Shown piece by piece: positions 1 to 37,438 of a stretch of 64,000 nucleotides of DNA; position 1 is the first letter of the stretch; every line of letters starts with the position of its first letter. The translations under genes and the position numbers were made by a program. Below the pieces are notes generated by a model. The model was not told the origin of the DNA. It worked only from the letters and a program-made list of their open reading frames with translations, and made no database searches. The stretch is from Candidatus Babeliales bacterium (lineage in GTDB: Bacteria; Babelota; Babeliae; Babelales; RVW-14), in NCBI GenBank assembly GCA_019749895.1, contig JAIEPG010000002.1, forward strand, positions 66,244 through 130,243. The letters run 5' to 3'.

Positions 1-2
1 GC

Positions 3-1133
3 TCTGGGGCAAACTGGGAACGCACACACCCCAACACGCTCGAAGAGATATTTACGTTTGTGCATCAAAGCTTACTTGCTGTGTTAAGCACACTTACACA
101 GCACGAAATTTCTTTACACAATTTTGGCGCAATCCAGCAAATGCACGACTTTTTACTCAACAAAACAAACCTCTCAACGCATTCAGCTAAAAAGATCAAC
201 GTTATTGGCGTTGATGTGCAAGGACCACTACTGCGGATTAACTACAGCTTCCCTCAGCGCTTGCACAGTGCACTTGCCACACTTACTTTTGATAAAACAA
301 CGCAAACGTGCTCACTACAATTTTCAATGATTGGATTTAACCACAACGGCCGCTGGGAACGCTGCCTGGATTTTTTAGAACTCAAGAGCATGGTTAAAGG
401 CATACCACTAGTCAAAGCCGAAGTTTTAGGCCAACGATTTAATAGTGCGTGGCAATGGCAGCTTGACGCCACAAAGCCAGAAAAGCACATCCTGTACCTT
501 TCCGATCTTTTTAAAATAGCGACCATTATTGCTTATCAATTTAACACGTTGCTGGGAAGCAATGAAGATAAGCTTTTTGATCCAACTATATCAGGTTCCA
601 TTGCCAAGATTTATGAGAACACAGACCGATCAGAATCGTATCTCATTTCTCACAAAAACGCACTACCAACACCTGCAGCAAAAAAAGCATTTTTTGATAA
701 AGCGGCACCTGTAGTTATACACCTCTCACGCCACAAGCATCGCGCGCACTGGCTGCTACCACAAGCACTTGCGTACATTCGCACAAACCCAACCCTAATC
801 ACCAACGAGTTGTTCAGCGAGGTTGTTGACATTGCCAACAAGCTTGCCACACCCGACAGTGACTATGCATTGGAAACAGAAATTTTTTTATACCGCAAAC
901 AAACCAATGCAGACAATGGGCCAAATCTTAGCGAAGCAAAAAAACGGTTTTATCAAACAACGGTAGAAAATTACTATCAGATTATGCCTCCAGAACGCAT
1001 TCAAGAAGTACGCGGTAACGCAAACAAAAATAAAACAACCAAGGGCATGCTTGCTTTGTGTCTTGAGCTGCTCAACACTGCCACCACAACCTCACGAGCA
1101 CAGAATAACAACGGTACTGATAAAAAAAATTAA
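3..1133 (+). CDS. hypothetical protein, probably 5'-partial
   Basis: The frame of the listed ORF 60..1133 (GTG at 60) stays open back to the window edge (..SGANWERTHPNTLEEIFTFVHQ..). No signal peptide and no motif I recognise. A hairpin terminator follows directly. Confidence 0.5.
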   Translation, partial: SGANWERTHPNTLEEIFTFVHQSLLAVLSTLTQHEISLHNFGAIQQMHDFLLNKTNLSTHSAKKINVIGVDVQGPLLRINYSFPQRLHSALATLTFDKTTQTCSLQFSMIGFNHNGRWERCLDFLELKSMVKGIPLVKAEVLGQRFNSAWQWQLDATKPEKHILYLSDLFKIATIIAYQFNTLLGSNEDKLFDPTISGSIAKIYENTDRSESYLISHKNALPTPAAKKAFFDKAAPVVIHLSRHKHRAHWLLPQALAYIRTNPTLITNELFSEVVDIANKLATPDSDYALETEIFLYRKQTNADNGPNLSEAKKRFYQTTVENYYQIMPPERIQEVRGNANKNKTTKGMLALCLELLNTATTTSRAQNNNGTDKKN

Positions 1134-1182: not shown

Positions 1183-3555
1183 TTAAGATGAAGATGATGC
1201 ACCCGAGTCAGTGAAATATTTAGCCATAACAGTAGCCAAAGATGTTTTCTTTTTTGGACTTAAATAGCCTGCTTGAATGTACAAATGCAACAGGTTTGCA
1301 CAATCTCTAGCTAATTCCTGGTTATTTGGACCAGCTCCGGGTTTATTAAGAAAGGCTATAACCATTGCCAAAAATGCTTTACTCTTGAGCCCTGCTCGTA
1401 AACCAGTAAAGATCATAAGGCCCATTGCTTCTTGCTTGTTATAATGTTGTATCAAGTCCAAAATATTAACCCCTGCAACGGCTGCATCGCCAAGTAATAA
1501 TTCTGGTGAAAGAGCTTTCATAAATTGTGAATACTTGTGTTCTCTTGTGGAGTCATTCTTCCAGCCTAGAATTGCAACAGCTTGACTTGCCATAGCACCA
1601 AAAGCCAAATGCAAAGAACTTTCAATCATGTCACGTCTCAAGTTTTCAGCTTCTACCTCAGACAACTCCTTGGTAGACAAGTTACCGGATGCATCTTTAT
1701 ACGTGATCTTGGCACCCGTAATCAAAATACCTTTATAAAAATCATAAATATAATTTTGCGAGCCTTTTTTCAATGAACCCAATTCACACACCCACCCAAT
1801 TGGATCGTAGCCAAGAGCACCTGTTGCTAAAGCAAAATCTGTATCGATAACTTTTTTTGCCGCATAAACTTTACCCTGGCCAGGCACAAGCCTTGTTCTT
1901 ATATAACCATCCAAAGCACTTGCATTATTTTTTGTTGGAACGGTAGGTATCTTAGCAACACTTTGGTTTATGCCCGACTTCTTATCAAAACGCTTAACCA
2001 CTTTTTGACTTGGAGTTTCTACGGGTAGCACAGGAGGAGTTGGCTGAGGCGTTGAAGAGGATGGCGGCGTTGGAACAGTTGGCAAGGACTTCGTTAATTG
2101 CTCTTCCAATTCTTTTACTTTGTCATCTGCATCGTCAATATCTTGCTCTTCTTTGGCTATTTTTGCCCCATCACGTTCGTTAATCGCGGTAAGCAACATG
2201 CGCGTTGTAATCATAATAAACATATGGCGTTGCACTTGAACACCAGGAGCATTATAAATGGCATCCAAAAATTTCCCATCTTTAGCCTGTCCCTTCTTTG
2301 CAAGAACACCTGCTGGCGAATATTCACAACAAGCATCAAGAAGATCTGAAAGCGCCGAACCGTTACCCTTTACATATTCTAAAATTTTATAAGAAAGGTA
2401 CTTTGATGGAGCTACATAATTAGCGTTCTGCCCAATGTAATACAATATTGCATTAAGCGCCCACACAAGCAGAACAGGCTCATTGCCGCCAGCATTAAGC
2501 AAAGAATAAGCTGAAATTAAACTTGGACGCCTGTATTGTAACTTTTTAATAATCTCATCATACGCCTCTTGCGTATTCAAAATATTTTTCTCAATAAGAT
2601 ATCGAAAAAGATCGACCGCTTGTCTTAGCTTGTTAACATTCGGCTCCATCGGATCCATGTAATTAAAGGTAACTTTGCCGTCACTTGATAAGAAATCTAT
2701 CAACTTATCTTTGGCAAAAGCCAAAACAGCTTGATTGTCTTTAAGATTGTCCTGAGTGCGCACAATCGTAAACCAATCGGTATAGTCTGGAAGACCGCTT
2801 CCTCCTGGAGGAAAAGCCTTCAACCCTGCCTCAACTTGAGGTACCGTCATCGAAGCCCCCTTTGGCCCAGACTCTACTCCCATTTGGGCAAAAGCATGAT
2901 ATTCATGCAACATTACTGCAAAAGTATCTTTGCAAAATTGGCGAATAGCTGCGGATTCACTATCAAATGCACCACTTTTAACCTGAGCAAGAATTGCAAA
3001 AAATTCCTGACGCTTTTGTTCAATAGTTGTAACATTTTGTGCATCAGCAACAAGTGCCGCATCGAGCGGCAAGGTATTGTACGGGTCAACCCACGCACGA
3101 TACACGGCATTCAACGAATTAACATCAGTGGCAGAGCTTGCAAGATCTTCAAATTGGGCTTCTTGGGCATTTTTTAGGGCATCAAGTTGCTGTTGAAGAT
3201 TTTCGATCTGACTCTTTACTACATCAACATCAGATTGGGAAATGCTTGCACTGGCCTGCAAAGTAGCAATTTGCCCTTTCAAGGCAGACAAAGCCCCTTC
3301 AAAAACGGCTTTGTCTGGTACGGCAACCGGCCCAGAAGTTCCAGTTATTGGTGGGGTTGGTTTTGGTAGCGGTACTGGTGGCGTTGGTTTTGGCGAAGTT
3401 GCATGCACCAACATATGCAACTGGTGGGCTAACTCAACCTGCTTTGCTTTTAAAATCTCAAGCGTTTGCCGTAAATCATTAAGAGGCCCGGCGGCGCCAT
3501 GCAAACTGGAACAAACAAGAAAAAAAATGGGCACAAAAAAATACTGCTTCTTCAT
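1183..3555 (-). CDS. large exported hypothetical protein (790 aa) with conserved post-signal-peptide helix and Pro-rich linkers
   Basis: Signal-like N-terminus MKKQYFFVPIFFLVCSSLHG. It is followed by AAGPLNDLRQTLEILKAKQVELAHQL, a motif shared with the 4569..11036 and 14758..16155 proteins. Pro-rich segments are PKPTPPVPLPKPTPP and PTVPTPPSSSTPQPTPPVLP. No catalytic motif recognised. Confidence 0.75.
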   Translation of the reverse strand: MKKQYFFVPIFFLVCSSLHGAAGPLNDLRQTLEILKAKQVELAHQLHMLVHATSPKPTPPVPLPKPTPPITGTSGPVAVPDKAVFEGALSALKGQIATLQASASISQSDVDVVKSQIENLQQQLDALKNAQEAQFEDLASSATDVNSLNAVYRAWVDPYNTLPLDAALVADAQNVTTIEQKRQEFFAILAQVKSGAFDSESAAIRQFCKDTFAVMLHEYHAFAQMGVESGPKGASMTVPQVEAGLKAFPPGGSGLPDYTDWFTIVRTQDNLKDNQAVLAFAKDKLIDFLSSDGKVTFNYMDPMEPNVNKLRQAVDLFRYLIEKNILNTQEAYDEIIKKLQYRRPSLISAYSLLNAGGNEPVLLVWALNAILYYIGQNANYVAPSKYLSYKILEYVKGNGSALSDLLDACCEYSPAGVLAKKGQAKDGKFLDAIYNAPGVQVQRHMFIMITTRMLLTAINERDGAKIAKEEQDIDDADDKVKELEEQLTKSLPTVPTPPSSSTPQPTPPVLPVETPSQKVVKRFDKKSGINQSVAKIPTVPTKNNASALDGYIRTRLVPGQGKVYAAKKVIDTDFALATGALGYDPIGWVCELGSLKKGSQNYIYDFYKGILITGAKITYKDASGNLSTKELSEVEAENLRRDMIESSLHLAFGAMASQAVAILGWKNDSTREHKYSQFMKALSPELLLGDAAVAGVNILDLIQHYNKQEAMGLMIFTGLRAGLKSKAFLAMVIAFLNKPGAGPNNQELARDCANLLHLYIQAGYLSPKKKTSLATVMAKYFTDSGASSSS

Positions 3556-3724: not shown

Positions 3725-4447
3725 TTATTCAGCTACTACTTCTTCCCGAGAATCACTGTCATCACTCACGCTTTCTTGAGTAACAGGAACCTCTGGCTGT
3801 TCTACCACAGATCGAAACGGCACCGCCGCTGGCACAAAACCAGCTGGGCGTTCTTGTGGAACAATCATTTGTTGGGGCTCAACTGTTGGCACAAGATTTG
3901 TTTGCTCTTCCTGTGGTGCAAATTTTTCAGCATAATAACGCTCAATAAATTGTTCTTGAGCTTTTGTTTCAATTGAATGAGGTCTCAGTCTGCGAACCAA
4001 TGCAATAGCATCTTGCGGTTTCATTGCTTTTTTTGCAACAAACCAACAGGCCAAAACGGTGCCCGTTCTGCCCTGGCCAGCAGTACAATGAACCACAGCT
4101 CCCTTATTTTTTGCTTGAACTTCATCTACTTTAGTAACGAAAGTTTCTATTTGTTCAACTGTTGGAGTATGAAAATCTTTAATTGGCAGATGCAAAACTT
4201 CAATAGCAACATCGTCTGGCACAGTAAGACCTGCAAGCATACTTTCGGTTAATGAAACAATAAGTCCAATACCCTGATCTTGCAAAGCATAAAAATTACC
4301 AACATTGGTTGGACGAGCCATGCCAGCAAGACGCGCATTTTCCTCGGTATTTACAAACGAAAAATTGCGCGGCAAAGAATTGGCAGCACTGTGCAACGCA
4401 CCGGTTAAGCCAAAAATAGCGAACAAAGAGAAAAACTGCTTTTTCAT
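3725..4447 (-). CDS. exported dual-specificity (DUSP23/VHZ-like) Cys-based protein phosphatase
   Basis: CX5R P-loop VVHCTAGQGRTGTVLACWFV, followed by RRLRPHSIETKAQEQF as in DUSP23-type enzymes. I prefer the internal ATG at 4447 (MKKQFFSLFAIFGLTGALHSAANS, signal-like) over the ORF-track start at 4543. Confidence 0.8.
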   Translation of the reverse strand: MKKQFFSLFAIFGLTGALHSAANSLPRNFSFVNTEENARLAGMARPTNVGNFYALQDQGIGLIVSLTESMLAGLTVPDDVAIEVLHLPIKDFHTPTVEQIETFVTKVDEVQAKNKGAVVHCTAGQGRTGTVLACWFVAKKAMKPQDAIALVRRLRPHSIETKAQEQFIERYYAEKFAPQEEQTNLVPTVEPQQMIVPQERPAGFVPAAVPFRSVVEQPEVPVTQESVSDDSDSREEVVAE

Positions 4448-4568: not shown

Positions 4569-7500
4569 CTAAATTAAGCCATGATAAGAACTATCTAACA
4601 CATTCTTCAGCTGCCCGCCTTTTAAAGTTTGATTTATAAATGGCTTTCTTGCATTTTCAAGCAACTGGGCCTGTGCCTGAGTATAAATCTTGTTTTGTAT
4701 ATTTTTAACTAAAAGATCATAGTTCTTTTGAGCAAGATAAGAATAATTATCCCCATTGTTTGCACTAGAAACCGATGTGTACTGAACAGCATAATTTTGT
4801 AAAAAAACATCATTTTTATAGCCAGCTTGCAACAAAATATGTACCAAGATAAGACTTAAACGGCGCAAACTACCACTAGTTTGTAGTCGAGCAAAAACTT
4901 CGTCCGGACTATCAAGTAAAACCGGCACCGAATCAAAAACCCTTTGAAGATTTTGCCGCTGTTCTGGCGTTGCTCCAGGAGCATTGTTGTCGGCAAAATG
5001 GCTAGAAAGGTCAGCCAATAAAGCTGGTTTCGTGGGATATAAATCACCAGGTGCAGACGCACCAGAATTATAATACGTCCATGGGCTTGGTGGTGGCGGC
5101 GTATCAAGATCTACTTTGTATGCTTTGATACTATTTTCTTGCTCTTCCGTTTCTATTGAGTGTGGACGCTTGAGCCTCACTTCATCAATCGCTTCTTGGG
5201 CCGTTATATTTTTTGATTTAACAAGCCAACAAGCAAGCATAGTCCCCGTCCGTCCATAGCCACCAGCACAATGAACAACAAGCGGCTGATTGGCTTCAAC
5301 ACTTGCCAGAGTTATAAATTGTTTAATTTGTGCAAGCGTTGGCGGCGCAAAGTCTTGAATTGGGATTCTTACGTTGCGCAGCGTACTCCAGCCTGGCACA
5401 CCCAAAGCACTGGTAAACCATTCCTGTGGCAATTGCGTCTCATTTGTCAACGAAACCAGATTCTTAACACCTTCAAATTGTAATGCTTTAATGTACGCAA
5501 AAGAATAAGGTAAAGCCATGCCACCTACCCGGTGAGGACTATCGTCAATCCAAGAAAAATTATTCCCTTCAAGAAGCTCTTTTAATCGCGCTTGCAAGTT
5601 CACTGCATCACAAAACTCTAATAGTTCAATCACATTTTTTAAAACAAGCTGATTGCCATAAATTTGTGCATTAAATTCGTCCCAAAGCTTATCTTTTGTT
5701 ACTTCATTAACACTTGTTGCCAAAGGGTAAAAAGCCTTGAAAACTTGTACCCCATTTTGACCAGACAAAACAAGCTCCATGTTTTCATCAAAGAACTTTT
5801 TCTTAGAGTTTTGAATCTCGGTATCAGTCCCGGCCAATTTCGCACCCGCAGGCCCAACAAATGAGGCTACTGATGAACCCGCAGCGTTAAGATTCATGAG
5901 CTGATCATAGACCACAACTGCTTGCGCTGCTTCTTTAACTTGTGCTGCTCCTGCTCGCCCCGGCTGCTGCGCTTGTTGCAGAAATGTTTGCAGATTAGTA
6001 TTTGCAACTGTGGAATAGGGAGAACCTCCCAAGCCACCAGAACTATTCACCGACTTAAGGCTCGCAAAGAAATCAGGACGCTTCTTAATTAAGTTAACAA
6101 AGTCTGTCCAAATATCTGCAGAAAATTTAGAATAATAAGTTTTTGTAACAATCGTATTAAATATCTGCTGTGCTATTGCATGTTTAAATGATCCAATACC
6201 TCGAAGATTATCCATTTGTCTGGCATGATGATCATTTTCACGCCGCGCTAACGTTTGATAAATATTTTCTTCAGATATTCCATAATATTCATCAGCTGGA
6301 ACGTCATGAGGATAGGCAGGACTTCTATTGCCTCTAAAGAAAAAGATATCGGCATTAGCAGCATAAGACGTCTTACTCAGCAATTTATCCATAATCGCTA
6401 GAGTACCCTTCCAATATTTATCGCCAGCGGTTCCTGCTGGAATATACTCAAGTACACGGTCAAGGTACATATGCGGGTAGCTTTTTTCAGATAATGATTT
6501 TTCAATTATTTTCTTTGCAAAGCTCTCTTTTAAAGCAAGTGTTTTTAACAAATTATCAACAATAAAAGTATACGTTGTGTTTTCTTTTGTTATCATGGAG
6601 TCACTGCCATCAGTAGCATATGAAAGTCCGTTGTGGCCAGTTGGACCATCATTGGCTTGACGCATAGCCTTTGCCAAAATATTTATTGTAGGGAGATATG
6701 GAGCAAGCTTGAATCGCGCAATATCTTCTTTGGTCACCGTCCACCAAAAAGTAACCGCCTTCTTTTCTGGCGTAACTTCAACTTGTTTAAGATCTAATGC
6801 CCATGCAACCGCTTGAGCATAGTCACCAATTTTATAGAAACGACCCCACTCGTTTTCGCCACTCGTTCTGCAACCAAAGCGAGCCGTGTCAGTTTTTTTG
6901 TTGTATTCAAGAAACAGAGTTGCGCTATGAGACCTCAACGGATAATTATACTTATAACCAAGAGTACCTTTACTAAACGAAAGCCCCATCAACGTTGCAT
7001 GATTACCATGCGTACCAAAACCTACTTTCTTAATGCTATCAATTTCTGCAAGCAAGTCTTTGAGCAACTGCGGCAACGCTGGAGCATCTTTACTTGCCAG
7101 CGCCACAACAGAAGTCTTACCCAAAAAGAAACTTGTTACATTAATCAAACTTTGATGAATAAAGGTAAAAATATCTTCAAACGTGTTGACAGCTTGAAGA
7201 GAACCTCCTGCTTTATTACCAATCACAACAAGCGCTACGTTAAAATTGTTAGAGTTATCAAGTTGAGCAGCATCGTAAAGCTTGGCTGCTCCAGATAAGC
7301 TTGTTGTTGCGGCTGCTAACTTAACAGTCACGCCAGTATCAAAAGCGGTACCGTAATGCCCACCAAGTTCTTGATACGGACTAATGCCGGTAAGCAGGCG
7401 TAAATATTCATCTAGCATTGTTTTAAAGGTGAAAAGTTTGTTGTCGCGCGTGTTAAGTTTAGGATTTGCAGCACTAGTAACCACTTCATACTCACTACTT

Positions 7501-10500
7501 GCTTTAACTGCCTTTATTGACTGATCGAACGTATCAATAAATAAATCTAACAGTGACAACACCGCCACTTTACCTATATCGCCAGCATTTTTGTATGATT
7601 GTACAAACGCAGGGTCAATAAGCTCAGTAACAATACCAGTAAGCAGCAACCATTGCTTATCAAACTTTTTACGCTGAGCAAATATTTCAGGCTTTAAAAA
7701 TTTAACACGCGCAATTTTCTCATTTACCGTATTCAACAGAGCTTTATCGTTATTGAATGCCGTTACAAGAGAGATCAGAACTTGCTGAACTGGTAGGGCT
7801 TGTGTTAAATCTTTTTCCTTTGCCGGTTCAAAAAAATCAGTGTGCAGCCAAACGGTAAGCAACCCAAGCTTACCCAAGGTTGCTACCGCTTCACCAAAAT
7901 CTTTTTTGTGCTGCTTGCCACCAACATCACCCACCTTGGCAACAAACTGAATCCACTTGTCACTCACTACTTGATTAAGTGCTTCGTCTGCTATTTTTGC
8001 ATACTGAATAACTTTACCTTCTTGTTTGATTTCAGGCTCAACAAGCCCTTTCTCTTTGAGTCTTTGAATAGCAATCGCTTCAGGTTTTAAAGTACGCAAA
8101 ACAAAATTGGCAAGTGAGAATGCATTAAGTACCTGATCCGCCTCTGGCTGCTGAAACAATAATGCTTCTAAGAAACGTACCGCAAATAATCGTTTAATAT
8201 AATCGTCTGTCCCTTTTACAAAATTACGTGTTTGCAAAATATGATGTCCAACCTTAGCCAAGGTATATTTAAACAAAGCTATTTTGTTAGTTAAATCTTG
8301 ATCTAGCGTTATTGATTTTACATAAAATTCCATACGCTGTTTAATAACCATCAAAAGAACCAAAAAGCTTATCCGTAGATTCTTTTCATCGGCACCTTGT
8401 GCCACAGTGTCAAGCATAGTCATAATTTGCGGAGCCAATGCTGCTTGGTTTTTAGTCGATTTAAATGGGGCAAGGAAAGCTTGAAGTTCCGCTGCGCTCA
8501 CTCCTTCTTTAAGTTCTAACTCTAATTCTTTAAGTAAATCATCAACCTTTGTAGCATCAAAATCTGCCGGTGCAATGCTAGAAAGCAACGGCGATATTGG
8601 ATAATTTTTCCAACCTTCAAGAATATCATTGGTATTTTTTAAATCTTGCAACGTTTGCTTTGAATCCCACTGAACCACCAGCCCCTGTTGTGGGTCGACT
8701 AAAAACTTTGCACCAGGCTCACTGATCGCATCGATAAGTTTATTAATACCGGTCATAAAAATAACCGGCTTTACTGCTGTACGAAATTGTGTTCCCTCAT
8801 GCGATGTTGGTGGCGCATGCTGCCCCACCACAACGCAAGCTACACGTTCTTTTGTCTTGCTATGCATGTACGTATCAAAAGCCTCACCCATAGTACTTTT
8901 AACAATTATTTGGTTGCCATCAATCAGTCGAACAGCACCATCGGCTGGAATAATTGTTTCTCCCTTAAAAACTTCTCCCGTTAACGCTGCAGGGTTGGCA
9001 ATGTATGACGGCTCTCCCTGATTTGGATTATGCGTAATTGGACGAGCTTGCACCAAGTACAATGTTGAATCATTTCTATCAATAACAAATTCAACGTCCA
9101 TTGGCTTGAGGTAATATTCTTCAAGAACATTTGCCAACAGCTTGAGCATAAGTCCTTCGTACGATGTCAGTACTGGGCTCATGGCAAGATCTGGCGGATT
9201 ATCGCGATCTTCAAGTTTAGAATCTTGGTTAAGAGAAGGAAATTTCCTAAATGGCTTTGGTCGCACAATTGCATACATTTTGTCAAAATCGCTCAGATAG
9301 TAGGTATCAACACCAACAAGACTGTTGACCACCCCTTCATTGTGCCCATACGCGGCATCAATAGCCACAATGCCAGTTGAACGAGCCTTGACAGAATAAT
9401 CCCAATGCTCATTCAAGAGATCTTTTTTTGCAATCCCCCCGCCCGGCTCTTCGGTAAACATAACACCACATGCTGGTAATCTTCTTTCTATCATTTTGTT
9501 GTCAGGCAAAACTGGCTCTATTTGCACAGCAACATAATTGTTTGGGTTTGCAACAGATGCAGCTGTTAGAACACGCACGGCGAGGACTATAGCTTCTGGT
9601 GTAGGCGCAACATTTTGAAAGTTTGTACCATTAGTAAGCGATACCTTAACCTGCCATCCTCCTTTTTGAGCTGCTTTTAACATACCATCAAGATCAGACT
9701 CTTGTGTGTTAAAAAATGCATCCAATGAATTTTTGCTTGTAGTTTTAAAGGTATCCCATTTTTCAAACAAGTTAGGACCAGGTTTATTGAACGCTGAACG
9801 CACATTTTTTGAACGAATACCACGAATACGCTCTCCCACCATTCTTTGAATAAGCACTGGCGTAAATGGCTCATCAAATAACTCAGGATCACCACCAATC
9901 AAACGTTGCATAAAGGATTTTTCACTAAAATATGAACCAACTACCACACCCATTGCCAGCAAAATTTCTGACAGCTGCGGCGCAACGTTTGCAACACTTT
10001 CATTACCCCCGGCGTTTGCAAGCTTGTCGGTATCTTCTTTCCCGGTACTACGAACCATTAATGAACTTTTGAAACGTTTTATTTTTTCAAGTGTTTCATT
10101 AATGCCAACTTCAAATTGAGCATCAAAATCAAAGATACCAGAAACAACGTCAGGCTCTGTTGCAGCTGTATTAAAAATGGCCATAACATCATTTTCTAAG
10201 ACCTTTAAATTATCCAAAAACGTTTTTGAAAAATTTTGATCGCGCTTAAATTGATCTTGCGCAGCCTTGTCAAAACGCGCTATAAAATCCGCCCAACGAG
10301 TTTTTATATCAAATCCATTTTTTAGCAAAAATGCTTTTATAGAATCTGACGAAATACCCTTAAACTCTGGCACACGTATTTTTAACTCATAAGAACCTGT
10401 TTTGTCGGCAATCAAGTTAGTCAAAATGCTTAATGCTCGAGATATCTTTTCAAGCTCTTGCAGATTTCCTGTTTTGTAACCATAGCCCTGAACTTCAGCA

Positions 10501-11036
10501 AAAACTCGCAATGCTTCTTTGTCGTGAGGGGCAATAGCAGCAATCAAGCTGGCAATCAATTGCGAAAGTTCTTTGTCGATATCTCTAAACGGTGCTGTAT
10601 CATACGCAATAAAAGCAGCAGCGTCTGGGTTCTTTTCTTCTTCTTCATCTGATTCCCAAAACATGCCCTTGAAAGCACCCCAGATCTTCCCTGTTAAAGA
10701 TTCTTCTTGCTGCTCTTGCGCTTTTAAATCCTTTACATATTGTCTCAGCGGCTTTTTGCTTTTAACAAATTCTTGGGCCTTGGTAAAACCGGTATTGTAC
10801 TGACCCCACAACGCCTGCTCTTTGGCTTTTCTTGCTGCTTCTTTTAAATTTTTCTCCAATTCCTGCTTTTCTCTCAAATCAGTTAACGCTTGTCCCAACT
10901 GACCAAGTTTTGCTTTTAAGGCGGTAAGTCCACCCTTCAAGTTGTCTAGTGGGTTTGTGGCAGCTGTAAATGCATGATTATTAATAAAAAATAGCAAGAG
11001 AAAACACAGCACGTACTGTCTCTGTTTTTTATTCAT
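4569..11036 (-). CDS. giant exported multidomain protein (2,155 aa): PPDK_N-like ATP-grasp, phospho-His swivel domain, about 1,050 aa unknown, DUSP23-like phosphatase
   Basis: Signal-like MNKKQRQYVLCFLLLFFINNHAFTA, then the shared helix NPLDNLKGGLTALKAKLGQLGQAL. ATP-grasp motifs (about 9033-10064): LMVRSTGKED, GVMFTEEP, AAYGHNEGVVNSLVGVDTYYL, PMDVEFVIDRNDSTLYLVQARPIT. Swivel domain (about 8742-8984): VACVVVGQHAPPTSHEGTQFRTAVKPVIF, with the T-S-H His codon at 8799-8801. Phosphatase domain (about 5112-5549): LVVHCAGGYGRTGTMLACWLV and LKRPHSIETEEQE, with the Cys codon at 5268-5270. Confidence 0.8.
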   Translation of the reverse strand: MNKKQRQYVLCFLLLFFINNHAFTAATNPLDNLKGGLTALKAKLGQLGQALTDLREKQELEKNLKEAARKAKEQALWGQYNTGFTKAQEFVKSKKPLRQYVKDLKAQEQQEESLTGKIWGAFKGMFWESDEEEEKNPDAAAFIAYDTAPFRDIDKELSQLIASLIAAIAPHDKEALRVFAEVQGYGYKTGNLQELEKISRALSILTNLIADKTGSYELKIRVPEFKGISSDSIKAFLLKNGFDIKTRWADFIARFDKAAQDQFKRDQNFSKTFLDNLKVLENDVMAIFNTAATEPDVVSGIFDFDAQFEVGINETLEKIKRFKSSLMVRSTGKEDTDKLANAGGNESVANVAPQLSEILLAMGVVVGSYFSEKSFMQRLIGGDPELFDEPFTPVLIQRMVGERIRGIRSKNVRSAFNKPGPNLFEKWDTFKTTSKNSLDAFFNTQESDLDGMLKAAQKGGWQVKVSLTNGTNFQNVAPTPEAIVLAVRVLTAASVANPNNYVAVQIEPVLPDNKMIERRLPACGVMFTEEPGGGIAKKDLLNEHWDYSVKARSTGIVAIDAAYGHNEGVVNSLVGVDTYYLSDFDKMYAIVRPKPFRKFPSLNQDSKLEDRDNPPDLAMSPVLTSYEGLMLKLLANVLEEYYLKPMDVEFVIDRNDSTLYLVQARPITHNPNQGEPSYIANPAALTGEVFKGETIIPADGAVRLIDGNQIIVKSTMGEAFDTYMHSKTKERVACVVVGQHAPPTSHEGTQFRTAVKPVIFMTGINKLIDAISEPGAKFLVDPQQGLVVQWDSKQTLQDLKNTNDILEGWKNYPISPLLSSIAPADFDATKVDDLLKELELELKEGVSAAELQAFLAPFKSTKNQAALAPQIMTMLDTVAQGADEKNLRISFLVLLMVIKQRMEFYVKSITLDQDLTNKIALFKYTLAKVGHHILQTRNFVKGTDDYIKRLFAVRFLEALLFQQPEADQVLNAFSLANFVLRTLKPEAIAIQRLKEKGLVEPEIKQEGKVIQYAKIADEALNQVVSDKWIQFVAKVGDVGGKQHKKDFGEAVATLGKLGLLTVWLHTDFFEPAKEKDLTQALPVQQVLISLVTAFNNDKALLNTVNEKIARVKFLKPEIFAQRKKFDKQWLLLTGIVTELIDPAFVQSYKNAGDIGKVAVLSLLDLFIDTFDQSIKAVKASSEYEVVTSAANPKLNTRDNKLFTFKTMLDEYLRLLTGISPYQELGGHYGTAFDTGVTVKLAAATTSLSGAAKLYDAAQLDNSNNFNVALVVIGNKAGGSLQAVNTFEDIFTFIHQSLINVTSFFLGKTSVVALASKDAPALPQLLKDLLAEIDSIKKVGFGTHGNHATLMGLSFSKGTLGYKYNYPLRSHSATLFLEYNKKTDTARFGCRTSGENEWGRFYKIGDYAQAVAWALDLKQVEVTPEKKAVTFWWTVTKEDIARFKLAPYLPTINILAKAMRQANDGPTGHNGLSYATDGSDSMITKENTTYTFIVDNLLKTLALKESFAKKIIEKSLSEKSYPHMYLDRVLEYIPAGTAGDKYWKGTLAIMDKLLSKTSYAANADIFFFRGNRSPAYPHDVPADEYYGISEENIYQTLARRENDHHARQMDNLRGIGSFKHAIAQQIFNTIVTKTYYSKFSADIWTDFVNLIKKRPDFFASLKSVNSSGGLGGSPYSTVANTNLQTFLQQAQQPGRAGAAQVKEAAQAVVVYDQLMNLNAAGSSVASFVGPAGAKLAGTDTEIQNSKKKFFDENMELVLSGQNGVQVFKAFYPLATSVNEVTKDKLWDEFNAQIYGNQLVLKNVIELLEFCDAVNLQARLKELLEGNNFSWIDDSPHRVGGMALPYSFAYIKALQFEGVKNLVSLTNETQLPQEWFTSALGVPGWSTLRNVRIPIQDFAPPTLAQIKQFITLASVEANQPLVVHCAGGYGRTGTMLACWLVKSKNITAQEAIDEVRLKRPHSIETEEQENSIKAYKVDLDTPPPPSPWTYYNSGASAPGDLYPTKPALLADLSSHFADNNAPGATPEQRQNLQRVFDSVPVLLDSPDEVFARLQTSGSLRRLSLILVHILLQAGYKNDVFLQNYAVQYTSVSSANNGDNYSYLAQKNYDLLVKNIQNKIYTQAQAQLLENARKPFINQTLKGGQLKNVLDSSYHGLI

Positions 11037-11199: not shown

Positions 11200-11220
11200 T
11201 CTCTAAAAAATCAAAGTAAA

Positions 11221-11275
11221 TTATTTGGCTAGGCGCGATTGGTAGAACGTGCGTACAAATTGCTCTTGTTCAAAA
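11221..11275 (-). pseudogene. 3'-terminal remnant of a DUSP23-like phosphatase gene (duplicate of 11981..12035)
   Basis: About 47 of 54 nt are identical by eye to the 3' end of the intact gene at 11981. The remnant translates FEQEQFVRTFYQSRLAK* against FEQEQFVRTFYKSRLAK* in the intact gene. No upstream coding continuation exists. Confidence 0.7.
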
Positions 11276-11337
11276 GGGCTATTTTATTAAAAAAAGGCTA
11301 TTTTCAAGACTATTTTTAACAAAAAATAACTTTAAAA

Positions 11338-11364
11338 TTGACCTGGGTACCAAATTGTGGTACC
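11338..11364 (+). promoter_or_regulatory. candidate hicAB promoter with operator palindrome
   Basis: TTGACC at 11338-11343. A perfect inverted repeat GGTACCA-aattg-TGGTACC at 11346-11364 overlaps the spacer and the -10 region (TACCAT/TAAAAT). It lies about 40 nt upstream of the hicA start. Confidence 0.4.
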
Positions 11365-11404
11365 ATAAAATTAGTAAAAAAGAATAGATAGCCAAGGACT
11401 GTGA

Positions 11405-11659
11405 GTGAATAAAAAGCATAAAAAAACTTTAGAGCTCATTTTTAAGTCGCCACCGCAGCCTAACGTGCGATGGAGCGATATTGAATCTCTCCTCAGAAAT
11501 TTAGGAGCTGAAATAAGTGAGGGCAATGGGTCACGGGTGCGTATCATACTCAATGATGTTAAAGCAGTATTTCACCGACCACATCCAAAGCCCGAAACAG
11601 ACAGAGGCGCCTTGGTATCAATGAAAAGGTTCTTACAAAACGCGGGGATTAGTTTATGA
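11405..11659 (+). CDS. hicA: HicA-family mRNA interferase toxin
   Basis: 84 aa with a GTG start. Family-typical KTLELIF..VRWSDIESLLRNLGAEISEGNGSRVRIILN..AVFHRPHP. A 4-nt ATGA overlap joins it to the downstream antitoxin gene. Confidence 0.85.
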   Translation: MNKKHKKTLELIFKSPPQPNVRWSDIESLLRNLGAEISEGNGSRVRIILNDVKAVFHRPHPKPETDRGALVSMKRFLQNAGISL

Positions 11660-11979
11660 ATAATTTAATGCACTATAAAGGCTATTATGGCCACGTTACC
11701 TTTGATAATGAAGCAGAAATCTTTCATGGCGAAGTTATTGGACTGAAAGACGTTATCACCTTTCAAGGCAAAAGCGTTCAAGAGCTCAATAAAGCTTTTA
11801 AAGACTCTGTTAATGATTATCTTGCGTGGTGCCAAGAACGCAACGAAAAACCTGAGAAAACTTTTTCAGGCAATCTACGTATTCGCATTCCAGCAGAGCT
11901 TCATGCCATTCTAACCAATGAGGCTGCGTCTCACGGCCTCAGCCTCAATTCATACATTATCGAAAAGTTACAAAAATAA
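11656..11979 (+). CDS. hicB: HicB-family antitoxin with C-terminal RHH-like DNA-binding tail
   Basis: 107 aa. YKGYYGHVTFDNEAEIFHGEVIGLKDVITFQGKSVQELNKAFKDSVNDYLAWC, then FSGNLRIRIPAELHAILTNEAASHGLSLNSYI. Translationally coupled to hicA. Confidence 0.85.
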   Translation: MNNLMHYKGYYGHVTFDNEAEIFHGEVIGLKDVITFQGKSVQELNKAFKDSVNDYLAWCQERNEKPEKTFSGNLRIRIPAELHAILTNEAASHGLSLNSYIIEKLQK

Positions 11980-11980
11980 A

Positions 11981-12520
11981 CTATTTAGCCAGGCGCGACT
12001 TGTAAAACGTGCGCACAAATTGCTCTTGTTCAAACGTACTAATCGACGGATTGCGCAGCTCACGAACTTTACGGATTGCCGAGTCGGCATCAATGCCTTC
12101 GTTGGCAATTAACCAACAGGCAAGCAACGTGCCCGTGCGGCCCATGCCGTGTTTGCAATGCACAACAACGCCTTTGTCTTGCTGTTGAACCGCTTTAGCT
12201 TCACGCAAAAACTCTTCAGCTTGTGCAATAGTTGGCACGTGCAGATTGTAAATGGGCAGATGCAGGGTTTTGATACCAGGATGCTCAATAAAATATTGTG
12301 GTGGCAAGGGGTTTTTGGTCAGCGTAACAATCAACCCAACATTGTGCTCGTGCAGGTAGGCAATGTGCTCTTTGCACGCGGGTTGTGCCATACCGGCCAT
12401 TTTATTGTTGGTTTTTTCACAGATCCAAGAAAAATACTGTGGGCTAATTGAAGATGACAAATTATGGGCAATGTTCATAACAGCAACGCTCAGCATTAAT
12501 AAAAACAGTGTTCTTTTCAT
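11981..12520 (-). CDS. exported DUSP23-like Cys-based protein phosphatase
   Basis: P-loop VVVHCKHGMGRTGTLLACWLI, then LRNPSISTFEQEQF. I prefer the ATG at 12520 (MKRTLFLLMLSVAVMNIAHN), which has GGAG upstream, over the ORF-track start at 12592. Its stop is 1 nt from the convergent hicB stop. Confidence 0.8.
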   Translation of the reverse strand: MKRTLFLLMLSVAVMNIAHNLSSSISPQYFSWICEKTNNKMAGMAQPACKEHIAYLHEHNVGLIVTLTKNPLPPQYFIEHPGIKTLHLPIYNLHVPTIAQAEEFLREAKAVQQQDKGVVVHCKHGMGRTGTLLACWLIANEGIDADSAIRKVRELRNPSISTFEQEQFVRTFYKSRLAK

Positions 12521-12958: not shown

Positions 12959-14665
12959 CTACAGTCCAGGCTCGTCGGATTCTTGCACGTAGGCAACTGC
13001 AAGCACTTCATCGATGGTAGTTATGCCTTCTTGAATTAACCGTACGCCATCCAGACCCAACAGCGTCATGCCGGCTTTAAGCGCCTGGTCACGCACCACA
13101 TTTGCATCGGCTCGTTGAATAATCAGGCGGGCAATGGCATCGTCAACCTCCATAACTTCAAACACCGCACAACGGCCACGGTAGCCCGTTTGTAGGCACT
13201 CGTCACAACCAACAGGCTTATAAAAAGTTATGCTGGCAGCTTGGGCAGCCGTTATGCCAAGACGGCGAATAGCTTCAGCATCGGGCTGGTAAACTTGGCG
13301 ACACTCAAGACACAAGGTACGTACCAAGCGTTGTGAGATAACCATAATTAATGAAGAAGCAATAAGAAACGGCTCAACGCCCATGTCGATCAACCGCGTA
13401 ATGGTTGCCGGTGCGCTGTTGGTGTGAATGGTGCTTAACACCAAATGACCGGTCAAGGCAGCTTGTGTTGCAATTTCTGCCGTTTCACGGTCGCGAATTT
13501 CACCAATCAGCACCACATCGGGGTCTTGTCGCAAAATAGATCGTAAAGAAACGGCAAACGTTAGCCCTGTTTTTTCATTAACCGGAACTTGATTCACACC
13601 ATGCACGGTATATTCCACCGGATCTTCAACGGTAATAATGTTAACGTCGGGCTGGTTTAAGCGATTTAAAATGGCATAGAGCGTAGACGTTTTACCAGAA
13701 CCGGTTGGACCGCTCACCAAAATAATGCCGTTAGGGCGTTCAATGGTACGCAGCATCAACTTTAAATCTCGCTCTGCCATACCAATTTTTTCTAAATCTT
13801 TAGTGCCCTTACCTTTGTCGAGCAAACGCATAACCACACGCTCACCAAAATTGCAAGGCAAAATGGACACACGAATATCAAATGCACGGTCGCCCACTTT
13901 AATTTGAATACGCCCATCTTGCGGTATCCGCTTTTCGGCAATGTTGAGATGCGCCATAATTTTTATACGCGAAACAATAGCGCCCTGGTAGCGCTTGGGC
14001 GGAATAACGCGGGAATATAAATTACCATCAATGCGGTAACGCACACGCAACTCTTTTTCATACGGTTCAATGTGAATATCTGACGCACCTTCTTTTACCG
14101 CCTGAAACATAACGTGGTTGACCAGTTTTACAATGGGCGCTTCGTTGGCCATTTCCATAATATCTTTGTCTTCAATGGAACTAAAACCGAACTCATCTTC
14201 GCCTTCGGTAAGCTCTTCCATCATTTCTTTACTACTTTCTAGCGGGTAGTATTTGTTGATGGCGTCCATAATAACTAAATCGGTAGAAACGGCATAACGC
14301 ACATCACCGGCCATGAGTAGTGAAAGATCGTCCAACGGCTGCAAGTCGTGCGGGTTGGCGGTTACCAACGTTTTTTGGCCTTCAAACATGATAGGAATTA
14401 CCATGTGCTGACGCAAAAATTTGAGTGGCACTTTGCGCAACAGCTCAAGGTCGGCCATTTGTTCGGTAATCAGCTGGATGAAGGGAAGCTGCATCTGCTC
14501 GCCCAGCGCACGAGCAACGTCATGCTTTGAAGCAAAGCCACGCTCAATAAGAATAGTACCCAGCAATTTGCCGGTCGATTTTTGTTCTTTTAAACAATCA
14601 TCAAGCTGCTCTTTGGTAACAATTCCAAGATCGATAAGAATATCACCAATTTTTTTTCTCAGCAT
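12959..14665 (-). CDS. GspE/PilB-family type II secretion / type IV pilus assembly ATPase
   Basis: N-terminal T2SSE_N-like domain (GDILIDLGIVTKEQLDDCL..LGEQMQLPFIQL). Walker A GPTGSGKTST. Asp/His boxes. Tetracysteine CLECR..CDEC. I prefer the start at 14665 (MLRKKIGD), with AAGGAG 9 nt upstream, over 14683. Confidence 0.9.
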   Translation of the reverse strand: MLRKKIGDILIDLGIVTKEQLDDCLKEQKSTGKLLGTILIERGFASKHDVARALGEQMQLPFIQLITEQMADLELLRKVPLKFLRQHMVIPIMFEGQKTLVTANPHDLQPLDDLSLLMAGDVRYAVSTDLVIMDAINKYYPLESSKEMMEELTEGEDEFGFSSIEDKDIMEMANEAPIVKLVNHVMFQAVKEGASDIHIEPYEKELRVRYRIDGNLYSRVIPPKRYQGAIVSRIKIMAHLNIAEKRIPQDGRIQIKVGDRAFDIRVSILPCNFGERVVMRLLDKGKGTKDLEKIGMAERDLKLMLRTIERPNGIILVSGPTGSGKTSTLYAILNRLNQPDVNIITVEDPVEYTVHGVNQVPVNEKTGLTFAVSLRSILRQDPDVVLIGEIRDRETAEIATQAALTGHLVLSTIHTNSAPATITRLIDMGVEPFLIASSLIMVISQRLVRTLCLECRQVYQPDAEAIRRLGITAAQAASITFYKPVGCDECLQTGYRGRCAVFEVMEVDDAIARLIIQRADANVVRDQALKAGMTLLGLDGVRLIQEGITTIDEVLAVAYVQESDEPGL

Positions 14666-14733
14666 ACTGCCCAGCTCCTTCATTTAGCATCAGATTTTTA
14701 TACGTGGTCCAGAGTGTATCAGATGGGTGGTAG

Positions 14734-14756
14734 GCGGGCAACAATTTAGCAAAATG
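14734..14756 (-). promoter_or_regulatory. 23-nt upstream motif, copy 1 (candidate -35/regulator site for the GspE-family gene)
   Basis: GCGGGCAACAATTTAGCAAAATG on the + strand. This is 21 of 23 identical to 16219-16241. On the minus strand it reads ..CTAAATTGTTGCCCGC, giving TTGCCC-N17-TACACT. Confidence 0.4.
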
Positions 14757-14757
14757 A

Positions 14758-16155
14758 CTAAAGCAAGGCATATGAATCAAAATTTCCTTGCTTCGTGAAG
14801 TACCTCGTCAGCAAAGAATCAATTTTAGCCTGTCTCTCCGCAAGAGGAATTTCTTTACTTACACCTGTGCCATGATTGTAGTACTTCTTATAAAAGCCTT
14901 CTAGCCCGGAGTGCGCAGAAAAAAAAGCTTCATTTCTACTAAGATCACTAGCAGGGTTATCATGATTAAAGTGTGAAATACTACCTTGCGGGGCAAATAA
15001 CTTATAATTAAATTCTCCACTCTTGGTACCAAATGCAATTGCACTGGTTCTATAGTGCGGTACAAGATCACCTGCTTTCAAAGATTTGTTGCTATCAAGT
15101 TGCTCCTGTGTTGCAGGAGCTCGATACGTTGAACCATTGTTCAAGGGGATCATGGTACCATCACCCTGAGCTTGCACAACAGCAACGGCCAACGAAACAA
15201 ACCAACCGGTATCGGTTAATGTTTTGGTAACTAGATTTTTAAGAACAGAAAATTGAGGCTTATGCGCATCTGTCAAATCTGCTTGCATTTTAGGCTGCGG
15301 CAAATGAACATCAATTGACGTCAAAATGTCACATTTCATAGAAGGGTCTACAGTACAATCGCGGCAATAATCTTCAGAATTACTGTAAGCGTAAATTTCA
15401 GTATCTTTAAAAGATTCAGAATGTGCCGATTTAAACCAATTAGCAAACTCTTGAAATCTTTGCTTATAGTTCACATTATTAAAAACGTCACCAGCATAAT
15501 TGGTATCGATAAAAATGAGCTTTTTAAAGGTAAAGCCAAAGCGAGCTAGCAAATCAATTAATTTAAAATCTTGACCGAGACACCCTGACCCAAGCGAAGC
15601 ATAGGTTAACTCTTTTTCTTTGCCATTAAACTTGGACAAACAAAATTCCAAGAAAAATAAATCAAAAATGCCTCTTCGCCATGAATCTATCGACAACTCA
15701 TAGCAAGCCTCAAAATGCCTAAATAAATCATGCAATTTATCAGTAGGAGTTAAACCTCTAAAACAATTATATGAACCAGGTTGAAACAGACCAGTCCCTT
15801 TTACGTGGTACTCGAGATACTTCACAAAAAACTCAGCATTTGGTTTCTCTAAAACCTTACCAGCCTCATCAACACCAAAAACATAATTGGTAAGTTCTTC
15901 TATCGCTGCTTTTTCGAGCAACGTAACGGGGTTAGTAAATTTTTTTCTCTTAAGTACTGCTGGCACACCTGGTCCCGCCGGTGCTGCTGGTCCTGCTGGT
16001 GCTGGTACAAGCGCAGACAATGCCTGCGCCAACGTTGCCAATTTTGTCTTAAGTGCCTGCAAACCAACTTGCAAACCAACCAACGGACCGGCTGCGGGCA
16101 TACATTGTGAAAAAGAGAAAAACAAAACAATAATTAATAATTTTTTAGACTTCAT
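14758..16155 (-). CDS. exported hypothetical protein (465 aa) with shared post-signal helix; possible Rossmann/methyltransferase-like core
   Basis: MKSKKLLIIVLFFSFSQCMP, then AAGPLVGLQVGLQALKTKLATLAQAL, then the Pro/Ala linker PAPAGPAAPAGPGVP. The segment YASLGSGCLGQD..KLIFIDTNY..CDILTSIDV weakly resembles SAM-MTase motifs I, II and IV. The fold call is low confidence. Confidence 0.7.
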   Translation of the reverse strand: MKSKKLLIIVLFFSFSQCMPAAGPLVGLQVGLQALKTKLATLAQALSALVPAPAGPAAPAGPGVPAVLKRKKFTNPVTLLEKAAIEELTNYVFGVDEAGKVLEKPNAEFFVKYLEYHVKGTGLFQPGSYNCFRGLTPTDKLHDLFRHFEACYELSIDSWRRGIFDLFFLEFCLSKFNGKEKELTYASLGSGCLGQDFKLIDLLARFGFTFKKLIFIDTNYAGDVFNNVNYKQRFQEFANWFKSAHSESFKDTEIYAYSNSEDYCRDCTVDPSMKCDILTSIDVHLPQPKMQADLTDAHKPQFSVLKNLVTKTLTDTGWFVSLAVAVVQAQGDGTMIPLNNGSTYRAPATQEQLDSNKSLKAGDLVPHYRTSAIAFGTKSGEFNYKLFAPQGSISHFNHDNPASDLSRNEAFFSAHSGLEGFYKKYYNHGTGVSKEIPLAERQAKIDSLLTRYFTKQGNFDSYALL

Positions 16156-23708: not shown

Positions 23709-23837
23709 ATAAAGTGCTCCCGTGCAAAACAAACAAGTAAAAAATCTATGAAAAACCAATGATTGTGGAGCACATTATAAAGAAAAAATCTATTTACTCA
23801 ACAAAAATGCATATGCCAACAACAAAAGAAGAGCTTT

Positions 23838-35730: not shown

Positions 35731-35749
35731 ACACTATTTCCTTTCATTA

Positions 35750-36430: not shown

Positions 36431-36435
36431 AATTC

Positions 36436-36912: not shown

Positions 36913-36941
36913 GCTTTTACTCCGTTACCCTGTTAAAAATT

Positions 36942-37430: not shown

Positions 37431-37438
37431 TTTCTACG

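Follow-up and report, generated by a model that had tools for sequence, protein, structure and literature searches.

A predicted exported dikinase-like protein of Candidatus Babeliales carries a DUSP23-like phosphatase and belongs to a large family recurrently linked to such phosphatases

We analysed a 64-kb stretch of DNA from a Candidatus Babeliales bacterium (contig JAIEPG010000002.1; this whole stretch, with a G+C content of about 41%, is called the window below) and one long gene within it, located at 4569..11036 on the minus strand and encoding a protein of 2,155 amino acids (aa). The TM6 or Dependentiae, the phylum to which this bacterium belongs, are obligate parasites of protists (PMC4776705, PMC6561590). 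A first description of the gene from its letters alone (hereafter the sequence-only reading) had proposed one uninterrupted minus-strand open reading frame (ORF) that starts with a signal-like segment and joins a dikinase module to a CX5R phosphatase of the DUSP23 type. The ORF is indeed single and unbroken, with a Shine-Dalgarno-like GAGGA upstream of its ATG, and Pfam, profile searches, structural models and alignments agree that the architecture is real. An identical protein (100% match) is recorded in NCBI as 'dual specificity protein phosphatase family protein [Candidatus Babeliales bacterium]'. The domain order is putative signal peptide, PPDK_N ATP-grasp, swivel, family-specific third domain, helical extension, DUSP23-like phosphatase and tail, with the following features along the gene.

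10959..11036, minus strand: putative Sec-type signal peptide, residues 1-26, read directly as MNKKQRQ, YVLCFLLLFFI and NNHAFTA/A
10497..10958, minus strand: post-signal motif ('PLxxLxxxLxxLKAKLGQLGQAL') and coiled-coil-like region, subfamily-specific, residues 27-180
8997..10496, minus strand: PPDK_N ATP-grasp (ATP/AMP-binding), residues 181-680, from Pfam PF01326, profile and fold match
9483..9827, minus strand: alpha/beta insert of 115 aa in the ATP-grasp, residues 404-518, a break in homology to other members
8637..8984, minus strand: swivel (mobile phospho-histidine) domain, residues 685-800, with T744-S745-H746 and the His codon CAT at 8799-8801
6702..8621, minus strand: family-specific third domain (putative acceptor-substrate domain), residues 806-1445, conserved family-wide
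5577..6701, minus strand: helical extension and linker, residues 1446-1820, in the closer subfamily only
5112..5564, minus strand: DUSP23-like dual-specificity (CX5R) phosphatase, residues 1825-1975, from PF22784, PF00782 and DUSP23
4569..5111, minus strand: Pro-rich linker and C-terminal tail, residues 1976-2155 plus the stop codon, with no family match

The source is a metagenome-assembled genome (MAG) and the gene is unusually long, two circumstances that could speak for an artefact, be it the fusion of separate genes by misassembly or frameshift or the remnant of a decaying gene that has lost its catalytic function. Yet, an orthologue of 2,154 aa shows the same architecture in a separate MAG, with 82% identity and conserved synteny, and four more proteins at 36-41% identity, from other assemblies, carry the phosphatase at the C-terminus as in the 2,155-aa protein. 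An assembly fusion is therefore unlikely. Since the catalytic residues are also intact in all three enzymatic parts, we regard an artefact of any of these kinds as extremely improbable.

The signal that had been noticed at the N-terminus has, by manual reading, a K/R n-region, an 11-residue hydrophobic core and a c-region ending in AFTA/A, and orthologues have AQA/D or LQA/D at the matching site. It is also the strongest hydrophobic 19-mer of the protein. Just one further segment, at 348, exceeds the hydrophobicity threshold; as it lies inside the ATP-grasp, no transmembrane helix is predicted elsewhere. According to a crude hydrophobicity test, 79 of 120 homologues start with a similar signal-peptide-like segment. 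The motif that follows the signal is much more restricted: searched with a loose regular expression within the first 90 aa, it occurs in 14 of 227 family proteins, all of them in the subfamily closest to the query, against 2 of 3023 background windows.

The ATP-grasp is the best supported part of the dikinase module. PF01326 matches it with E 4.6e-24 (85.7 bits for a cut-off of 27), in two stretches because of the 115-aa insert. The sequence-only reading had placed the domain at about residues 325-668; the domain stands but its start does not, as it really begins at about 184 with GYGYKTGNL (184-192), the counterpart of the GGKxANL motif. MVRSTGKED..ANAGG (327-344) and PMDVEFV..VQARP (645-666) complete the set. 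These nucleotide and Mg motifs are invariant, with R329, S330, G332, E334, D335, N341, A342, G343 and G344 unchanged in an alignment of 119 homologues and D647, E649, Q663 and R665 in an alignment of 40 sequences (A2). A family profile built from 40 members finds rifampin phosphotransferase (RPH) as the best sequence-profile match for the grasp (E 1.8e-22) and also matches PEP (phosphoenolpyruvate) synthase (PEPS), within a range of 1e-22 to 1e-20. Together with the fold matches to RPH, PEPS and PPDK given below, these results identify a nucleotide-binding domain of the PPDK_N type. The insert, restricted to the closest relatives (P0002-P0005 among those inspected), is modelled as folded by AlphaFold 2 (AF2), with a predicted local distance difference test score (pLDDT) of about 77-91.

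The swivel domain was harder to establish. PF00391, the Pfam profile of the phospho-histidine domain, matches neither the whole protein nor the excised swivel segment, even at E<=10, and in two distant members it stays below its cut-off of 23.1 bits (P0097, 6.9e-4, 19.6 bits; P0075, 0.028, 14.5 bits). The sequence-only reading had placed the domain at about residues 685-765 and had named such a failure as grounds for abandoning it; taken literally, the prediction falls on this point, though stronger tests support it. First, the family profile aligns continuously to Pyrococcus PEPS 8a8e (E 3.2e-21), from the grasp through the catalytic His, and pairs 'ApaTSHeATtFR' of the family with the catalytic histidine motif 'GGRTSHAAIVSR' of PEPS. 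Second, the AF2 model of residues 150-800 (pLDDT 89.2, predicted template modelling score, pTM, 0.90) is matched by Foldseek to PEPS, RPH, HpeI and PPDK with E between 1e-11 and 1e-6. The match to Neisseria PEPS 2ols (E 1.9e-11) covers 628 alignment columns for a query of 651 aa and that to PPDK 2x0s covers 664 columns, whereas full-length RPH entries align over only about 330-540 columns, their swivel being elsewhere in the chain. Third, S745 and H746 are invariant in 119 of 119 homologues and T744 is kept in 106 of them; His746, whose codon lies exactly where it had been read, stands at the N-terminus of a helix in the model. Because of this profile alignment, this structural match and these invariant residues, we accept a swivel fold with a T-S-H histidine after the ATP-grasp in spite of PF00391. 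The grasp and swivel cassette thus looks complete and, to judge from its residues, catalytically competent.

The some 1,050 residues between swivel and phosphatase, in which nothing had been recognised at first, are not featureless: residues 806-1445 are conserved throughout the family and residues 1446-1820 form a helical extension limited to P0002-6, P0010, P0013, P0014, P0029 and P0123. Mapping 120 homologues on the query delimits a family core of residues 150-1400 or so, which includes neither the phosphatase nor the tail. In the third domain, D1171, K1175 and H1294 are each found in all 185 members that cover the region, H1370 in 184, E1287 and Q1295 in 181 and R1399 in 174; W1063, E1287, F1290, Q1295 and R1399 all fall within 174-182 of the 185. 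Its motifs are GWxNYPIP, FDxSIK, (L/F)EDxFTxxHQSL and PLRxHSA. An AF2 model of the central region, which the sequence-only reading had suggested making, is of good quality (pLDDT 84.8, pTM 0.81) and shows a mostly helical domain in which residues 1348-1434 or so form a beta subdomain of six strands, followed by more helices up to 1720. No counterpart was found. There was no Pfam or NCBIfam match to the third domain, nor to the whole stretch 800-1820 or the tail; the family profile retrieved only noise for this region among PDB sequences (designed helical repeats at E>=1e-3); and Foldseek gave no credible fold match for the model, none at E<0.03, with best E values of 0.066 in the PDB (TM-score 0.11-0.16) and 0.038 in BFVD. 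We regard as noise the weak likenesses of the model to HEAT solenoids, Vps34, APH(3') kinases and small proteins of the YbjN/ExsC type.

With residues 935-1445 as the query, HMMER retrieved 479 clusters from 1.84 billion representative proteins, 228 of them at E<=1e-10. Among the best 150 of the 479, the domain lies at about positions 600-1100 of proteins of 1,200-2,000 aa, short and probably fragmentary proteins excepted, and this placement therefore fits a domain following grasp and swivel. By its position, it presumably corresponds to the acceptor-substrate domain of PEPS and PPDK, and a conserved set of Asp, Lys, two His, Glu, Gln and Arg would suit phosphoryl transfer. The tail, estimated at about 180 aa and in fact exactly of that length, is 79% conserved in the orthologue P0002 and weakly so in P0004, P0005 and P0014. 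A C-terminal motif LxHxxxQAGY that we suspected to be common to the tail and to a neighbouring 790-aa ORF was not significant (E 0.028-0.15).

The phosphatase raises no such difficulties. Its domain (1825-1969) is matched above cut-offs by PF22784 (1e-23, 84.5 bits) and PF00782 (DSPc, 3.8e-11, 43.4 bits), and is also matched by PF22785. Human DUSP23 (2img) is the best solved relative, aligned end to end with E 4.8e-24, in agreement with the DUSP23-like CX5R domain first read there. The P-loop HCAGGYGRTGT (1922-1932) contains Cys1923, encoded by TGT at 5268-5270 as predicted, and Arg1929, and the general acid is Asp1895. All three residues are conserved in the fused orthologues, so that the conservation that had been anticipated for His746 and Cys1923 holds for both. 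The domain is thus an atypical dual-specificity phosphatase (DSP). Its P-loop core CAGGYGR resembles CALGFGR of DUSP23, and the GRTGT type of loop is, we assume, common to Cdc14, SsoPTP and DUSP23, unlike loops of the PTEN type or those of glucan phosphatases. This would lean, weakly, towards a phosphoprotein substrate. The window holds two more copies of this domain, in genes on either side of the large one.

3725..4447, minus strand: stand-alone secreted DUSP23-like phosphatase with signal peptide, downstream gene (PF22784 6.6e-26; tblastn)
11981..12520, minus strand: second stand-alone secreted DUSP23-like phosphatase, upstream gene (PF22784 4.2e-26)

The first, with a likely start MKKQFF at 4447, is 42% identical to the fused domain; the second is 36% identical and has Asn in place of the general-acid Asp. 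Both keep the HCX5R catalytic motif. By tblastn, these three copies are the only ones in the window and all lie less than 9 kb from the 2,155-aa gene. We considered whether the protein might be a polymorphic toxin with a DSP-PTPase warhead (Tc-R-P, PF22785) and give it little weight: its first 1,445 aa make up a conserved enzymatic core and not a delivery scaffold, the phosphatase can be N-terminal in other members and we recognised no immunity-like gene.

The family to which the core belongs numbers at least 479 clusters at 50% identity, mostly from TM6, and is multi-copy, with two or three loci in several MAGs. The window itself contains part of a second member.

1..1133, plus strand: C-terminal 377 aa of a second paralogue, running off the left edge of the window (tblastn to query 1284-1596, E 4.5e-10)

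This fragment begins inside the TLEEIFTFVHQSLL motif and best matches P0011 (E 1e-30), a member with an N-terminal phosphatase. Accessory domains vary among members: P0030 and P0055 have an N-terminal USP deubiquitinase, P0101 and P0106 have ankyrin repeats, and a fused DUSP23-like phosphatase occurs in just 8 of 227 family proteins. In a neighbour-joining tree, which is rough, the C-terminal phosphatase fusions form one clade (P0001-6) and the N-terminal ones (P0011, P0170) two separate and distant clades. Within the approximately 35 loci covered by our neighbourhood figures, stand-alone phosphatase genes moreover adjoin the unfused members P0015 (one on each side), P0013, P0206 and P0010 (two genes), at L005, L014, L020 and L032 respectively. 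On the other hand, at three of four further loci that we sampled no phosphatase lies closer than 8 kb. As fusions are few and such loci exist, the phosphatase cannot be obligatory for the core function. Judged from gene structure and gene order, its link to the family is recurrent, independent and frequent without being obligatory.

The sequence-only reading had proposed that one polypeptide combines the addition and the removal of phosphate. Recurrent fusion, at the C- and the N-terminus, and adjacency at four or more loci provide independent genomic support for a functional link between the two activities; their coupling on one and the same molecule is, in turn, presumed. One might argue instead that the dikinase-like core and the phosphatase are independent effector activities, delivered together and directed at unrelated host targets, in which case the fusion would reflect co-regulation or co-secretion. 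The core does accept unrelated accessory modules (USP, ankyrin, DSP), and most members lack a phosphatase, with none nearby at the three loci just mentioned. But no other partner is as frequent as the phosphatase, which joined the core in three or more independent events, at either terminus, and whose gene lies next to that of the core in four additional clades. Repeated acquisition and adjacency are a pattern typical of functional coupling, and we find independent activities unlikely.

A different kind of coupling would be self-regulation. The regulatory proteins PDRP/PSRP act on PPDK and PEP synthase by reversible phosphorylation of the Thr next to the catalytic His, and the phosphatase could, with an analogous outcome, act in cis or in trans by removing an inhibitory phosphate from Thr744 or Ser745. 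Both residues directly precede His746 and are conserved to the extent given above, the stand-alone phosphatases have signal peptides of their own and would hence be co-exported, and such a function is compatible with a fusion at either end. Against it, T-S-H is conserved in all PEP-utilising enzymes regardless of regulation, most family members do without a phosphatase, and no kinase placing the inhibitory mark was identified. Self-regulation is in our opinion unlikely.

Where the protein acts is the next question. Several lines of evidence support the direction of the host: the signal-like N-termini, the fusions to USP and ankyrin modules, the Sec signals of Dependentiae effectors, the presence of a type II secretion system (T2SS) in the core of the phylum (PMC4776705) and the several paralogues per genome. 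In C. destructans, a cultured relative, signal peptides are found on 44% of coding sequences and on 78% of ankyrin proteins, regarded as effectors (PMC6561590). The USP and ankyrin fusions argue for action in the host cytosol for at least part of the family. Yet, the protein might work in the bacterium's own periplasm or envelope, on a polymer or a lipid, with host ATP entering through outer-membrane porins. A Sec signal is the only one evident, with no dedicated translocation signal, and the neighbouring genes encode an OmpA-family protein and an ATPase of the T2SS or type IV pilus (T4P) type. However, the targets of USP deubiquitinase and ankyrin modules exist only in eukaryotes, and a multi-copy, fast-diverging paralogy is typical of effectors. 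An envelope function is therefore distinctly unlikely, and the 2,155-aa protein most likely acts in or on the host cell.

Altogether, we consider it fairly probable that the gene encodes a Sec-exported, multi-domain histidine-relay phosphotransferase effector, coupled to a phosphatase and most likely acting in or on the eukaryotic host cell. The transfer of the beta-phosphate of ATP to His is established chemistry for PEP synthase, PPDK, rifampin phosphotransferase and glucan-water dikinases. Here, the PPDK_N grasp would bind ATP and pass the beta-phosphate to His746 of the swivel, with release of AMP and inorganic phosphate, a relay from ATP to His that has a precedent in RPH (PMC4844700). 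The swivel would then carry the phosphate to the third domain (about 806-1445), where Asp1171, Lys1175, Glu1287, His1294, Gln1295, His1370 and Arg1399 may form the acceptor site, and the phosphate would be put on a hydroxyl, or on another nucleophile, of a target most likely found in the host. The DUSP23-like domain (Cys1923, Arg1929, Asp1895) and its two stand-alone paralogues would hydrolyse a phosphomonoester in the same pathway, either reversing the mark or removing a neighbouring phosphate, which would make the locus a pair for adding and removing phosphate.

Some of our results weigh against this interpretation. The silence of PF00391 concerns the domain on which the relay would hinge, and the scarcity of fusions together with the loci devoid of a nearby phosphatase concern the coupling. 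The acceptor site is deduced from position and conservation, in a third domain with no recognisable fold or ligand-binding signature. By itself, the Sec signal, the sole export signal seen, would take the protein only to the periplasm, and host ATP would have to reach the exported enzyme. Finally, the MAGs behind some members bear the labels Myxococcota, Planctomycetes or Chlamydiae, so that the family is not strictly one of TM6 endoparasites.

A third type of secreted protein may belong to the system. The gene next to the downstream phosphatase encodes a protein whose relatives recur beside other members of the family.

1183..3555, minus strand: 790-aa secreted ORF (K2W90_01355), a recurrent neighbour, with signal peptide and post-signal motif
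7294-10389 of locus L001: relative of the 790-aa ORF
13240-15357 of locus L032: relative of the 790-aa ORF

Its residues 203-498 are homologous to a 1031-aa ORF beside P0011 (L001/L002, E 3e-10) and to a 705-aa ORF between the two phosphatase genes beside P0010 (E 2e-5), in two diverged genomes, giving recurrent neighbours of 700-1,030 aa. A word-based search for relatives found only the ORF itself and its orthologue, the distant ones being retrieved only through the neighbourhoods of family genes. We see in the 790-aa ORF a possible third component or substrate-adaptor. It also shares with the 2,155-aa protein the motif that follows the signal peptide, which in the form 'PLxxLxxxLxxLK(A/T)KLxxL(G/A)QxL' is present in three neighbouring secreted proteins that are otherwise unrelated.

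10890-10958: post-signal motif of the 2,155-aa protein, residues 27-49
3420-3490: post-signal motif of the 790-aa ORF, residues 23-45
16010-16090: post-signal motif of a 465-aa ORF (14758-16155), residues 23-48

Such a motif may be a sorting, secretion or tethering signal of Dependentiae.

The most far-reaching version of these ideas is one to which we give tentative credence, short of even confidence. It holds that the family is a new class of secreted, host-targeting phospho-histidine-relay dikinases that phosphorylate a host macromolecule by means of a new catalytic domain and that form, with DUSP23-like phosphatases and the third secreted protein, a modular system for the editing of host phosphates that is widespread in Dependentiae. 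Either a protein or a membrane lipid could be the target; we know of no ATP-grasp/swivel enzyme that phosphorylates a protein from ATP. Dependentiae are a ubiquitous phylum of protist parasites; as means of host manipulation, the published genome papers name above all ankyrin proteins and hydrolases. The family defined here, large and paralogously expanded, adds to these the reuse of a dikinase cassette with an unmatched domain. If host phosphorylation were true, the transfer of a beta-phosphate through phospho-histidine would be new chemistry among bacterial effectors, insensitive to classical kinase logic, and phosphoryl transfer would gain a new fold in the third domain. Together with the DUSP23-like phosphatases to which it is recurrently linked, the family would then make a natural add/remove pair whose substrate could be hunted.

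Other genes of the window are of interest in their own right. A HicA/HicB toxin-antitoxin pair (PF07927 8.9e-12, PF05534 2.5e-18) lies between the 2,155-aa gene and the upstream phosphatase gene.

11405-11659, plus strand: hicA
11656-11979, plus strand: hicB
11213-12041: whole hicAB region

It is bracketed by two direct repeats of 69 nt (11213-11281 and 11973-12041), 84% identical and 760 nt apart, of which the inner copy duplicates the 3' end of the upstream phosphatase gene, encoding ..EQFVRTFYQSRLAK followed by the stop codon. This looks like the insertion of a cassette with target duplication. Further upstream, 2 kb from the 2,155-aa gene, is a gene for a GspE/PilB-type (T2SS-E) ATPase (12959-14683, minus strand), and an OmpA-family protein is also encoded among the neighbours. 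T2SS or T4P genes lie 2-8 kb from family genes at three loci, namely this window, L032 (1-693, T2SS-F) and L034 (1128-2980, T2SS-E and MshEN). Their proximity could be a functional secretion link or merely conserved synteny in small genomes.

Several other proteins with signal peptides are encoded elsewhere in the window. A tandem run of four ORFs on the plus strand (43401-48700) includes three clostripain-family (Peptidase_C11) paralogues at 43401-44837, 46163-47380 and 47447-48700, with signal peptides and PF03415 matches of E 1e-38 to 1e-52, the fourth ORF being at 44798-46159; such paralogues agree with the arsenal of secreted proteases that has been described in Dependentiae. On the minus strand, 21753-23759 encodes a protein of 651-668 aa that starts with a signal peptide and ends in a domain of the CYTH (triphosphate tunnel metalloenzyme) type (PF01928 7e-7), predicted to be an exported enzyme acting on nucleotide or polyphosphate substrates. 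A run of ORFs of 160-260 aa (34842-39802, minus strand) contains five with signal-peptide-like N-termini; in three ORFs of the run the signal is followed by a start of the form 'xxFxNxS/T', and the four that we tested gave no Pfam match. The run may represent small secreted proteins that are paralogous to one another. Lastly, a secreted protein of more than 1,164 aa runs off the right edge (60507-64000, plus strand), with a low-complexity N-terminus rich in Ser, Asp and Lys and Methyltransf_FA-like repeats (PF12248 1e-26).

How does the 2,155-aa protein compare with known systems? The sequence-only reading knew of no characterised protein with such an architecture, and our full-text literature searches found no publication describing the family or the architecture either; a literature mention of PPDK_N in giant proteins of a predatory bacterium is unrelated. 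PEPS and PPDK show the same order of grasp, T-S-H swivel and acceptor domain, PEPS entries provide the best structural and profile matches (2ols and 8a8e), and the chemistry from ATP to His~P(beta) is presumably common to all. Yet, the protein is not a PEPS or PPDK proper. The TIM barrel PF02896 is missing and a helical domain of about 640 aa, unrelated and without a TIM-barrel match, stands in its place; NCBIfam models of PEPS score 51-53 bits for cut-offs of 598-740. The Babeliales protein is moreover predicted to be exported, 2.5 times longer and equipped with a phosphatase.

RPH-Lm, a dikinase of three domains, puts phosphate on a hydroxyl of a non-metabolic substrate (PMC4844700), from which it follows that the grasp/swivel scaffold can accept new acceptor domains. 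It differs in having its substrate-binding domain between the grasp and a C-terminal swivel, whereas here the swivel directly follows the grasp, and in being cytoplasmic, whereas here there is an export signal. In profile and Foldseek comparisons only the grasp aligns to RPH, with no similarity to the rifampin-binding domain, and the RPH model NF041857 scores 23.4 bits for a cut-off of 999. The same cassette has been recruited to new acceptors in the prodiginine ligases PigC/HapC and in the two-component dikinase HpeHI (PMC12167813). HpeI 9goj is matched by Foldseek (E 3.9e-9) and PigC by NCBIfam (4.2e-11, far below cut-off), but these are cytoplasmic small-molecule enzymes with other acceptor domains. 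In Enzyme I of the phosphotransferase system, a swivel phospho-histidine domain delivers phosphate to HPr docked on an all-helical subdomain. That enzyme is, however, charged by PEP through a TIM barrel and not by an ATP-grasp, and we detected no similarity between its helical domain and our third domain, either by profile search of PDB sequences or by Foldseek. As for the DSP domain, it has in common with human DUSP23 (VHZ), archaeal SsoPTP-type DSPs and PTP-SAK (PF22784) the HCxxGxGRTGT loop, the general-acid Asp and the IETxEQE motif; the difference is that here it is a module of a secreted bacterial protein of 2,155 aa, accompanied by secreted stand-alone paralogues.

Glucan-water dikinase (GWD), together with SEX4, LSF2 and laforin, is the only well-known case of a PPDK_N/His dikinase paired with a CX5R phosphatase on the same substrate. 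One might speculate that bacteria have here an analogue of the cycle of GWD and glucan phosphatases known from plants and apicomplexans, with a secreted pair that phosphorylates and dephosphorylates the storage polysaccharide of the host and so solubilises it for the parasite. The enzyme classes and their pairing match, and for TM6 bacteria a life on sugars of the host has been inferred (PMC4776705). But the enzymes of that cycle are separate proteins with the carbohydrate-binding modules (CBM) CBM45, CBM20 or CBM48, with the His domain before the grasp and with another P-loop signature, and the Babeliales protein has none of these. Pfam and NCBIfam scans detected no CBM family, the order is grasp, swivel and acceptor domain instead of CBM, His domain and grasp, which also sets it apart from GWD/PWD, and the helical third domain matches no glycan-binding fold. 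The P-loop CAGGYGR matches that of DUSP23 and does not fit C-zeta-A-G-psi-G-R, which we take to be the signature of glucan phosphatases. A glucan cycle is thus very unlikely, and the plant GWD/SEX4 parallel is only an analogy. What the Babeliales family supplies is a Rosetta-stone link between two classes of enzyme whose pairing had so far been confined to the starch metabolism of plants and apicomplexans. The phosphate-relay cassette is already known from all the dikinases above; what is new in the Babeliales protein is the acceptor domain, the context of a secreted effector and the recurrent coupling to a DUSP23-like phosphatase.

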